64,000 nt of DNA from a virus (Duplodnaviria; Heunggongvirae; Uroviricota; Caudoviricetes), in the IMG/VR virus record IMGVR_UViG_3300028886_003642. One strand, given 5' to 3'. The notes beneath the pieces are model-generated. The model did no database searches. It was not told where the DNA came from and was given only the letters and a program-made list of their open reading frames with translations. Shown piece by piece: positions 54,947 through 56,584 of this stretch (positions are counted from its first letter, which is position 1; the number at the start of each line of letters is the position of its first letter). The translations under genes were made by a program, and so were the position numbers.

Positions 54947-55801
54947 TTAGGACAACGTACAACCACAACCATTAGCAGAAGCGTAAGGAGAACCTACAGT
55001 GTATGCAGGAACAGGATAAGGTTTTAATGCACTAACTAAAGCCTGTGTCTGTGCAGCATTATCAATCTGATTTCTTGCTGCTTGAAGATCTGACTGAAGA
55101 GCATAAATCTGATTATCTTTATCATTCATCTGCATAGTAGTTAATCTGTCAAGAATTTTCTGAGTATTTGCATCAGACTCTGCTCTTGTAGCACATGCTT
55201 CAGTAGCTAACTGATATTTAACAGCTTCGATATTATTATTTACACCACAAATCTGATTCTGAGTTACATAGCCAAGATTTGCCATACCATTAGTAATTGC
55301 ATTACCAGTCTGTACCATGTTCATGTTTAGTGCATTAGTCTGTTCTGCAATACCCATAGCTAAATTATTTGCATTTTGCATAATTGCCATATTAGTAGCA
55401 TTTGTATTCTGCAACATGCTATTATTGATATTAGCCATACCACCCATAATAGTAGTATTAATTGTGTTTAAACCTTGTAATTGATTATAACCGAGTGTGT
55501 TAATATCATTGCCAATATCACCAAGTTTGGCATTTAGGTTTTGATATTGGAAGCCATTATTGATGTCAGCCTGTGTTGCATAATTTGCAAGAGCCTGATT
55601 ATTGCCATTACCCCAAGGGCCATAGCCACCATTACCAAAACCACCCCATGCCATAAGGAAGAAAAGGAAAAATACGATCCATCCACTTCCGTGACCAAAA
55701 AAGTCATCACCATCATTACCTACATTATATACAGGTGTTAGCCCGTTATTACCATTTGTCATTAAATCAGCCATAAGGCATTCCTCCTTTAGTATGTACA
55801 A
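54947..55801 (-). CDS. membrane-anchored Asn/Gln/Met-rich low-complexity (prion-like) protein, 284 aa
   Basis: TM segment WIVFFLFFLMAWGGFG, then ~200 aa enriched in N, Q, M, G, A and L (NINNSMLQNTNATNMAIMQNANNLAMG...). Ends CGCTLS. Confidence 0.45.
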   Translation of the reverse strand: MYILKEECLMADLMTNGNNGLTPVYNVGNDGDDFFGHGSGWIVFFLFFLMAWGGFGNGGYGPWGNGNNQALANYATQADINNGFQYQNLNAKLGDIGNDINTLGYNQLQGLNTINTTIMGGMANINNSMLQNTNATNMAIMQNANNLAMGIAEQTNALNMNMVQTGNAITNGMANLGYVTQNQICGVNNNIEAVKYQLATEACATRAESDANTQKILDRLTTMQMNDKDNQIYALQSDLQAARNQIDNAAQTQALVSALKPYPVPAYTVGSPYASANGCGCTLS

Positions 55802-55952
55802 TAGAATTAAAATTATCGAATATATTTACTAAATTTAAAACTAAAACCTTACTATATCCACTTGGAGGTGGATGACAGTTATCAAATAGTTTTTTCTTAA
55901 CTATTTTGACTCATCTCCTTGCCTACTAAGCAATTATATTATATTTCAAAGG

Positions 55953-56183
55953 TTATTGACCTTGAATACCAAACATTTGTTTCAACTGATCTAAATTCAT
56001 TCCTCTCTGCTTACATACATTTTCTAAAATCTTCATTTGTGCTCTATGACTTTTTCCTTGTAACATTGATTGTGCTCTTTGAAACATAGGATTACTACCA
56101 AACATTTGTTGCATCATAGCTTGAGGATTTCCAGAATTCATTAACATTTGAAGCATTTGTGCTGGATTAAATTGATTATTCAT
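55953..56183 (-). CDS. Gln/Met-rich small protein (76 aa)
   Basis: MNNQFNPAQMLQMLMNSGNPQAMMQQMFGSNPMFQRAQSMLQ... Confidence 0.4.
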   Translation of the reverse strand: MNNQFNPAQMLQMLMNSGNPQAMMQQMFGSNPMFQRAQSMLQGKSHRAQMKILENVCKQRGMNLDQLKQMFGIQGQ

Positions 56184-56584
56184 TTCTTTTTCTCCTCCAC
56201 ATTCCCACCAGTTAAACTATTAAGCATATCTTCTAAATCAGATACTCTCTTTTTTAACTTAGATAGTTCTTCATTAACAGGGTCTAATTTACTATCTTTT
56301 ACATCTTCCAGTACATAATGCTTTATTACTGAATTACCTTGCATATCAATACACTTAGTAAATATTGAATTACTAGCTGGATGTGGAAAATACGTTTCAG
56401 ACCCATCCATATCTACAACACTCGCTTTTACCTCGTCTAAAGATGATACTAATCTGCCTTTAAGACACATCATTGGTTGTTGTGGCATTTGCTGAAACTG
56501 CTGTTGCATTGCCTGTTGTGGCATCATTTGCTGTTGAGGCACTGCATATCTATTTTGCATATAATTTGGATACTGATTATACAA
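56180..56584 (-). CDS. protein with Gln/Met/Pro-rich N-terminus (134 aa), TTG start
   Basis: MYNQYPNYMQNRYAVPQQQMMPQQAMQQQFQQMPQQPMM, then a globular region. RBS AGGAGAT precedes TTG. Confidence 0.4.
   Translation of the reverse strand: MYNQYPNYMQNRYAVPQQQMMPQQAMQQQFQQMPQQPMMCLKGRLVSSLDEVKASVVDMDGSETYFPHPASNSIFTKCIDMQGNSVIKHYVLEDVKDSKLDPVNEELSKLKKRVSDLEDMLNSLTGGNVEEKKK

Follow-up and report, generated by a model that had tools for sequence, protein, structure and literature searches.

A conserved mobile five-gene cassette of tailed phages opens with three Gln/Asn/Met-rich genes and may encode a membrane-anchored complex

Classic morons of phages are single, patchily distributed genes. Better-described proteins with which the products considered here can be compared are the class I fusion proteins (influenza HA2, coronavirus S2 HR1), the i-spanin Rz and the T4 holin T, the BclA proteins of the Bacillus exosporium, and chaperone adaptors of the STI1/DP, XPC-binding and ubiquilin types; many tail and baseplate proteins of phages are reported to contain PLAAC-type prion-like domains (Tetz and Tetz, 2017; PMC5694896). 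Here we analyze a 64,000-nucleotide stretch of a Caudoviricetes genome (IMG/VR record IMGVR_UViG_3300028886_003642; hereinafter the window), in which an examination of the letters alone (hereinafter the sequence-only reading) had singled out three consecutive genes with products dominated by Gln, Asn and Met. We found that these genes, p134, p76 and p275, are the front of a conserved mobile cassette, p134-p76-p275-p146-p148. It resembles a moron in that its first three genes have their own promoter and terminator (as consensus matches), that a related phage keeps the flanking genes but lacks the cassette, and that temperate relatives have it at the prophage edge or beside the integrase; it differs from the classic cases in comprising five genes, conserved across phyla and also present in virulent phages (Ceridwen, crAss-like phages).

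In jackhmmer searches with the window proteins against all open reading frames (ORFs) of 91 loci, we recovered p275 in 89, p134 in 80, p76 in 68, p146 in 46 and p148 in 28; the loci having been sampled with p275 as seed, the partner-gene frequencies are conditional on its presence. The order is fixed, p134 > p76 > p275 > (p146) > (p148), and the genes share one strand, the sole exception being a fragmentary p146-like match on the opposite strand of one locus (L042). The two mini-ORFs and the p303 gene that flank the cassette in the window fall outside the conserved set. Where p76 stands beside p134 (68 of the 91 loci), the two genes mostly overlap, abut or lie a few bases apart; in the window the p134 stop and p76 start overlap by 4 nt (ATGA), which points to translational coupling, and p275 follows after ~180 nt with its own ribosome-binding site. 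Searching one genome for each species with a p275 alignment of the prophage type retrieved 80 loci from hosts among the Lachnospiraceae, Oscillospiraceae and other Clostridia, Bacilli, Erysipelotrichaceae and Negativicutes, as well as the Gastranaerophilales (Melainabacteria), several Bacteroidota, and metagenome-assembled genomes of the Spirochaetaceae and Absconditabacterales (one each). At least the p275 gene is present in crAss-like phages. Clostridium perfringens phage XP41-N3 and bajarodcaudo virus 5 both have homologs of p275, p134 and p76 as direct neighbors; the three also co-occur in other phage records, and cultured carriers are found among the C. perfringens phages and in Butyrivibrio phage Ceridwen. 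Phages of at least six bacterial phyla, crAss-like viruses included, share one syntenic five-gene module, which moves among thousands of gut and rumen phages. Megablast with 10 kb of the window against phage genomes returned no match.

The genomic positions of the cassette vary widely. A related phage on a 118-kb viral contig (L091), with a p303 homolog 55% identical to that of the window, keeps the tail assembly chaperone, tape measure protein (TMP), p303 and p595 genes, and has five unrelated small ORFs between TMP and p303; cassette hidden Markov models found no match anywhere in this 20.9-kb locus. The window cassette occupies a variable slot downstream of the TMP gene. In another phage (L095), all cassette genes follow the major capsid protein (MCP) gene and an immunoglobulin (Ig)-like gene immediately and in tight succession, and precede an Ig-like paralog, and in the crAss-like cr116_1 a p275 homolog lies between the portal and capsid genes, near a holin and a carboxypeptidase. 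Ceridwen, a cultured lytic phage, has the cassette after the endolysin and a terminator and before the early region, bajarodcaudo virus 5 after a holin and a peptidase, and Lachnospiraceae prophages immediately behind the integrase or where prophage and host DNA meet. Pfam searches of 142 upstream neighbors recovered Sigma70_r4/DUF1492-type proteins in 11 cases, lysis enzymes and holins in about 10 (holins, M15, CHAP, amidases, ELLD) and AgrB in four; among 148 downstream neighbors they recovered integrases or recombinases (~16), helix-turn-helix repressors, host housekeeping genes and holin/M23 genes (~6). Because of its own promoter and terminator, its absence from L091 and these varied positions, the cassette appears to behave like a moron-type accessory module; the sequence-only reading had assigned the three genes to a phage structural module, whereas they are part of a mobile unit found at many genomic positions.

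The first three cassette genes are predicted to form their own transcription unit, with a promoter, a structured leader and a terminator (Table 1). Both promoter hexamers match the consensus (12/12, plus the TG), and the same promoter precedes the p134 homolog of a related phage on a 126-kb contig (L093), where it is followed by a shorter leader with one hairpin, directly 3' of the TMP stop and before the same genes. The p134 leader of the window has a minimum free energy of -49 kcal/mol against -25.7 +/- 3.0 for shuffled sequences (z = -7.7); a search of the region and the leader against Rfam gave no match. The leader could be an attenuator or an mRNA-stabilizing element. There is no obvious promoter before p146 and p148, which are presumably transcribed by read-through. 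Altogether the window has 13 promoters of the cassette type, all on the minus strand. Free movement combined with a strong promoter implies that the module must confer a general advantage, for which lysis control, exclusion of competitors, adhesion and membrane remodeling are candidates.

The composition that had drawn attention to these genes is real. Across the 59 called genes of the window the fraction of Gln, Asn and Met is 12.6%; it reaches 46.1% in p76 (binomial p=9e-13), 28.2% in the 284-aa ORF that contains p275 (p=3e-12) and 25.4% in p134 (p=5e-5), in the last case owing to residues 1-40, 25 of which are one of the three (p=2e-13). The three ORFs rank first, second and third among the 59 genes and lie side by side, an adjacency with a chance of ~0.002 (342/195,054 by our own arithmetic). 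They do not follow the TMP gene immediately, as the sequence-only reading had it: two mini-ORFs of 54 and 61 aa, both preceded by a promoter of their own, intervene. We give practically no credence to the explanation that an AT-rich genome yielded these reading frames by chance, or that the genes are unrelated neighbors whose composition reflects codon bias. A GC content of ~31% does favor Asn, but Gln and Met are enriched 3- to 8-fold above the window background, which AT bias does not explain; ribosome-binding sites, promoter and terminator are in place; and the full-length homologs of all three in genomes of differing composition, together with the synteny fixed in ~90 loci, refute it. As the Gln/Asn/Met bias is kept in the alignments of homologs from other hosts, it is probably selected for and not merely an effect of low GC.

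We assign p275 to family phrog_16490. Its start is most likely the ATG at 55774, giving 275 aa, as an AGGAGG lies 8 nt upstream and homologs are 267-277 aa long; database homologs span 97% of the 284-aa ORF. A word-indexed search retrieved 424 homologs, and the profile matches 4,108 representative clusters (50% identity) at E <=1e-3 and 727 at <=1e-30, with full-length homologs down to ~26-30% identity in genomes of differing composition. The layout comprises an acidic N-tail, a hydrophobic segment (~31-47), a Gly/Trp-rich linker, a helix of ~180 residues and a Pro-rich, Cys-capped C-terminus. AlphaFold2, run on an 87-sequence alignment, predicts a helix at 31-42 and one continuous helix at 68-249, with predicted local distance difference test (pLDDT) scores of 85-97 over ~100-240 and low confidence at the termini and the Gly-rich linker. 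The alignment shows, after the conserved hydrophobic segment (mean Kyte-Doolittle 2.1 over 15 residues), the elements GGWGNGGFGG and YATQADIxxGF, then Asn-rich helical repeats in variable number, the motifs CCC, Yxx-AT-xxC, NTQxILDxL and AQTQxL, an invariant PxPVPAY, and a GCGC cluster at the C-terminus. The hydrophobic residues have a hendecad-like periodicity of 3.64 residues, which was equaled by 4 of 500 shuffles. In the 87 homologs the N-terminal flank and the 30-residue C-terminal flank of the hydrophobic segment each average fewer than one Lys/Arg, the N-tail has ~3 acidic residues, and the mean number of cysteines is 8.6 per protein. As a separate observation, the 90% cluster of one prophage homolog (P0094, from relatives of a Lachnospira eligens prophage) has 2,017 members and includes a 76-aa shortened form on at least 1,000 contigs, such short or fragmentary versions being very common in human gut data.

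p134 belongs to phrog_21718, which is matched by 58 of the 70 members of its homolog family, and has 59 homologs in the word-indexed search. Its model consists of a disordered segment at 1-40 (pLDDT ~40), a small beta domain at ~45-92 (modeled at 49-92) and a C-terminal coiled-coil helix at 102-124. The family keeps the beta domain and the coiled coil, and the first 40 residues, rich in Gln, Pro, Met and Tyr, keep their composition across the family while their length varies; a p134 profile against the PDB found nothing below E=0.19. p76 typifies a conserved helical family of 70-80 aa with three predicted helices, each starting with NP, and a conserved Gly near the C-terminus; its Met/Gln richness persists in higher-GC hosts. 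Pfam scans of the family recurrently gave non-significant matches to XPC-binding (5 members), Ddi2_HDD (3), STI1-HOP_DP (2) and UBQLN1 (2), with SurA_N and Trigger_C likewise recurring below significance. Chaperone adaptors of the STI1/DP, XPC-binding and ubiquilin types share with p76 repeated 'NPxxM/LxxQM' helices and a very high Met and Gln content; unlike in true members, no p76 match is significant, and the resemblance may be purely compositional. Taken together, these matches hint that p76 may be a peptide-binding helical module. The best PDB profile match of p76, 7BQQ ('Gogy', E=9e-6), which we take to be a designed helical protein, was rejected as compositional.

These structures bear directly on the suggestion of the sequence-only reading that the products are prion-like and phase-separate or form amyloid. 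In that case they would be low-complexity proteins building amyloid, condensates or a Gln/Asn-rich matrix, such as an assembly compartment or a sticky coat. The unusual composition is indeed strong (Gln, Asn and Met, plus Tyr and Pro), clustered and conserved, the p134 N-terminus is predicted to be disordered, the fifth cassette gene elsewhere encodes long tracts rich in R/G/Y/D that are similar to those of phase-separating proteins, and, as in the phage domains cited at the outset, Gln/Asn-rich stretches lie near tail genes. However, predicted disorder (as low-confidence coil) is confined to residues 1-40 of p134, the only part comparable to those PLAAC-type domains; the Gln/Asn-rich remainder of p275 is a confidently predicted long helix with hydrophobic periodicity and conserved motifs, and p76 is a short, conserved, helical family. 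By the Michelitsch-Weissman criterion of at least 30 Gln+Asn per 80-residue window, none of the three is prion-like, the best windows being 29/80 in p275 (borderline), 23/76 in p76 and 19/80 in p134. Regularly spaced methionine and aliphatic residues are atypical of prion domains. We therefore hold this interpretation to be highly improbable. The description of the third product as one transmembrane (TM) helix followed by an N/Q/M-rich remainder was right as to the hydrophobic segment and the richness, but the start is likely internal and the remainder is periodic and motif-bearing. The richness would instead reflect selection for polar-core coiled coils and Met/Gln-rich helices: by analogy it fits helices with polar residues at or near core positions, as in the stalks of trimeric autotransporters and the HR1 of class I fusion proteins, and also the Met/Gln-rich helices of the STI1 type. 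The R/G/Y/D-rich tracts and the p134 N-terminus make some disorder-mediated association possible, not as the main feature.

Of the two downstream products, p146 appears to resemble the trimeric TNF-like head of BclA, a beta-sandwich. Its family profile matches PDB 9H38, the trimeric TNF-like C-terminal domain (CTD) of F-BclA from Bacillus thuringiensis (PMC12357932), at E=2e-5 over ~100 residues, and p146 matches Pfam BclA_C at E=1e-4 (22.5 bits, below the curated cut-off of 38). The likeness to the BclA/F-BclA CTD (Bacillus exosporium and the tips of F-ENA; PDB 1WCK, 9H38) concerns the fourth gene and not the three Gln/Asn/Met-rich ones, and p146 differs in being a stand-alone domain of 146 aa that lacks a collagen stalk and an exosporium-targeting N-terminus. 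CC motifs occur in p146. p148 is a DUF7841 protein (PF25223; E=6e-23, 81.7 bits against a cut-off of 25.2), the only clear assignment among the protein families whose membership we tested. Neighbor clustering showed that position +1 is occupied by p146 or by an unrelated Cys-rich beta family, and position +2 by DUF7841 or by a helical family that is unrelated to it and bears a tract rich in R/G/Y/D; the possibility that the former (c6/c17) and the latter (c9/c10/c13) are divergent versions of p146 and p148 was rejected (hhalign probabilities <15%). This alternative fifth-gene family has its R/G/Y tract internally, and p148 homologs in many other phages (e.g., L042 7144-7920, L045 1737-2564) have an N-terminal extension of 60-170 residues consisting almost entirely of R, D, E, G and Y, a low complexity of another flavor than Q/N/M.

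Homologs of the three first products are many and keep the composition, and since our searches linked none of the three to an ordinary function, the sequence-only view of them as unusual is not contradicted by their relatives. A role in decoration or assembly is conceivable for them. PADLOC models of defense and anti-defense systems gave two chance-level matches only (E 0.013 and 0.083), and matches to GerD, MtrB, NPV_P10 and a cyclase were rejected as chance-level coiled-coil or compositional. Foldseek with the p275 model against BFVD and the PDB found no matches, which is uninformative as the model is a single long helix. Members of the p275 family are labeled 'hypothetical protein' or, in crAss-like genomes, 'spike protein/glycoprotein' and 'outer capsid protein/viral fiber'; the fiber labels appear to derive from coiled-coil resemblance only. 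The searchable literature held no mention of DUF7841/PF25223, phrog_16490 or phrog_21718 and no description of the cassette was found there, and its genes are not discussed in the comparative-genomics papers on Ceridwen and the C. perfringens phages. The central family thus comprises more than 4,000 clusters at 50% identity with no studied member found, within the large share of the coding capacity of gut and rumen phages that is without known function. The analysis corrects the misleading crAss-like labels, and the odd chemistry of the products, which combine a coiled coil of polar core with helices rich in Met and Gln, clustered cysteines and disordered tracts (Q/Y/P or R/G/Y), is tractable biochemically, with the cultured carriers (Ceridwen and phiCP13O-like C. 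perfringens phages) making the question directly testable.

The 'spike protein/glycoprotein' label probably stems from a resemblance to class I fusion proteins. Like these, p275 has a hydrophobic Gly/aromatic-rich segment followed by a long N/Q-rich helix, and its profile recurrently gives alignments to HA2 that start at residue 2, with others to coronavirus HR1, at non-significant E-values (0.01-0.2); searches for significant homology to HA2, S2 or gp41-type proteins found none (best profile E 0.011-0.2). In contrast to them, p275 lacks a second heptad repeat, a C-terminal anchor or hydrophobic segment, a receptor-binding subunit and a cleavage site, and tailed phages have no envelope to fuse. 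One could nonetheless imagine the cassette as a hitherto unrecognized, self-contained membrane-active machine that breaches or remodels host membranes at egress or entry, in which a class-I-fusion-like p275, with a hydrophobic Gly-rich peptide ahead of a trimeric polar-core coiled coil, is kept soluble by a Met/Gln-rich holdase and capped by a TNF-like trimer; we consider this quite unlikely. If true, it would work in both monoderm and diderm hosts, hence its horizontal spread among thousands of gut phages, and would be a functional analog of spanins and viral fusogens without homology to either.

Our best guess, put forward tentatively, is that the cassette encodes a membrane-anchored complex of stalk and head that acts on the envelope of the host. 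The five products would assemble and be anchored in the cytoplasmic membrane of the host cell, whether infected or lysogenic, with the p275 stalk binding p148, the TNF-like p146 and the pair p134 and p76, whose translation would be coupled. p76 may serve as a small holdase for hydrophobic or Q/N-rich helices, and the complex would act on the envelope, and not on one given virion architecture, by controlling lysis and egress or by excluding other phages. For its location, the hydrophobic segment conserved in p275 suggests the cytoplasmic membrane, and the spread over podo-, sipho- and large phages of monoderm and diderm hosts implies that the target is probably common to all hosts. An N-out/C-in orientation, with a cytoplasmic stalk, is weakly suggested by the missing positive N-terminal flank (unlike in a Sec signal-anchor), the short acidic N-tail and the partners devoid of signal peptides. 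Membrane insertion and oligomeric state of p275, formation of the complex and the timing of its expression are proposals drawn from the sequences and the model.

Several observations weigh against this proposal. The topology of p275 is ambiguous, both flanks of the hydrophobic segment being without Lys/Arg. Searches of p134, p76 and the 284-aa ORF against Pfam, NCBIfam, PADLOC and the PDB found no known family above threshold, their PHROGs matches are to function-unknown families only, and the STI1-type matches of p76 are non-significant (best E 0.013-0.2). Superinfection-exclusion genes are usually single and fast-evolving and not phylum-spanning five-gene cassettes. The high cysteine content (8.6 per p275 homolog; the CC motifs of p146) is more typical of disulfide-stabilized extracellular or virion proteins, phage fibers, too, are classically made up of a coiled-coil stalk and a TNF-like head, accompanied by small genes of the chaperone kind, and the cassette lies inside structural gene blocks in the window, in L095 and in crAss-like phages.

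The last three points lead to the main rival, a reading that we regard as possible, though doubtful, namely an accessory fiber or decoration of the virion. p275 would be a trimeric coiled-coil shaft and p146 a distal TNF-like knob cross-linked through cysteines; the hydrophobic Gly-rich N-terminus of p275 would anchor in the particle or insert into the target membrane on contact, and p134, p76 and p148 would be adaptors or assembly chaperones, so that adhesion or host range is added or changed, analogous to the side tail fibers of lambda, the head fibers of phi29 and BclA-type filaments. Consistent with this, the genes stand in the late structural block here, after the MCP between Ig-like paralogs in L095 and between portal and MCP in cr116_1; p146 is TNF/BclA-CTD-like and has PHROG matches (E 6e-4 to 9e-4) to 'virion structural protein' and 'collagen-like minor tail' families; the presence/absence pattern is that of an accessory; disulfide stapling is known from a virion protein of a gut crassvirus; and some crAss-like homologs bear the 'outer capsid protein/viral fiber' label. 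However, known fibers do not have a conserved segment of such strong hydrophobicity, the p146 matches are weak and the label apparently reflects coiled-coil resemblance only, and the cassette is carried by phages whose virions are architecturally unrelated and lies, in prophages, between the integrase/attachment site and the immunity region, far from the structural genes. Nor is there similarity to the head fibers gp21 and gp29 in the crAss001 atlas, which contains no protein comparable to p275: gp21 and gp29 are small (models to residues 97 and 118), with beta-type C-terminal domains and without a long coiled-coil stalk, and p275 as the crAss001 head fiber was rejected on these grounds.

A sub-case of the envelope-acting idea would make the cassette a dedicated effector or regulator of lysis, with p275 as an i-spanin or a class III (T4 T-type) holin or antiholin and p134 and p76 as its cytoplasmic regulators, setting lysis timing or completing envelope disruption. 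Lysis genes are among the commonest annotated neighbors (~10 loci upstream, ~6 genes downstream), several p275 homologs adjoin them, as in Ceridwen and bajarodcaudo virus 5, or lie near them, as in cr116_1, and the short N-terminal part, single TM segment, large helical C-terminal domain or coiled coil and conserved cysteines of p275 recall Rz and holin T. Rz i-spanins dimerize via disulfides. Against this, p275 is about twice as long as Rz and without sequence similarity to these proteins, and the TM-like segment and long helix are present but the K/R-poor N-flank argues against the N-in/C-out orientation. There is no o-spanin lipoprotein partner: p76, p146 and an ORF embedded in p275 on the same strand (55716..55534) lack a signal peptide with a lipobox cysteine. 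Most carriers are phages or prophages of monoderm Firmicutes, hosts that need no spanin, the carrier phages already own a holin and an endolysin, the cassette is dispensable in a close relative (L091) and so non-essential, and no recognizable lysis gene adjoins it in the window. Such a role is unlikely, and for envelope action we prefer the broader stalk-and-head proposal.

All genes of the window lie on the minus strand, and Table 1 gives the coordinates of the cassette and its surroundings.

Table 1. Features of the cassette region in the window.
Feature	Coordinates	Strand	Remarks
Tail assembly chaperone-like gene	63950..63456	minus	
Tape measure protein (TMP)	63178..57209	minus	1,989 aa; Phage_lysozyme2 and NLPC_P60 domains
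Mini-ORF 1	57165..57001	minus	54 aa
Mini-ORF 2	56946..56761	minus	61 aa
Cassette promoter	56722..56757	minus	TTGACA-N14-TGg-TATAAT-ATAAGTA; consensus extended -10 sigma-70-type, 12/12 match at 56757..56729
p134 5' leader	56585..56720	minus	two long hairpins, then ribosome-binding site
p134	56584..56180	minus	134 aa; TTG start
p76	56183..55953	minus	76 aa
Spacer p76/p275	55775..55952	minus	contains the p275 AGGAGG ribosome-binding site; comparable spacer in L093
284-aa ORF	55801..54947	minus	p275 is the 275-aa version, 55774..54947
Intrinsic-terminator-like hairpin	54903..54924	minus	GGGGAAGA-loop-TCTTCCCC plus T run, directly 3' of the p275 stop
p146	54872..54432	minus	146 aa; cassette gene 4
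p148	54429..53983	minus	148 aa; cassette gene 5
p303	53859..52948	minus	303 aa; matches phrog_687, annotated 'structural protein'

The large proteins further downstream of p303 are without matches. Within 500 bp 3' of the TMP stop (57205..56722, minus) lie three near-identical promoters with 0 mismatches, of which the first two each precede one of the mini-genes; these have no homologs outside this phage, and the post-TMP stretch looks like a tandem array of promoter-plus-mini-gene units. In the same phage from another sample (L002), an extra ORF of 539 aa (6741-8360) directly follows the TMP gene; as it is absent from the window and from L003, it represents an insertion/deletion polymorphism at the same hot spot. 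L091 has a 228-aa ORF with a GIY-YIG-like N-terminal motif between its p303 and p595 homologs (10933-11619), which, judged by eye, is probably a homing endonuclease.

Elsewhere in the window (759..52941), Pfam searches detected the anaerobic ribonucleotide reductase NrdD and its activase, a dUTPase, DnaB- and SNF2-type helicases, an IS605 OrfB/TnpB (Cas12f-like TNB), a homolog of the anti-Thoeris protein Tad3, an SPFH/Band-7 protein, four CBM_5_12 proteins and three Laminin_G_3 proteins. The source is a large phage of an anaerobe, with contigs of up to 199 kb.

Other loci bring additional families to the cassette. A protein of ~120 aa with conserved Cys and His residues accompanies it in 32 loci, three genes up- or downstream of p275 (e.g., L092 5722-6099, L020 3463-3819); it has no Pfam match, and its pattern, DCxxRA...GHxxC...YD, is reminiscent of a minimal papain/C39-like peptidase. 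Neither this protein nor the other extra families of these loci have matches in the window. The Sigma70_r4/DUF1492-type proteins found directly upstream of the cassette in 11 loci are small (~80-95 aa; e.g., L007 5839-6075) and, with the AgrB neighbors, suggest dedicated regulation in some phages.

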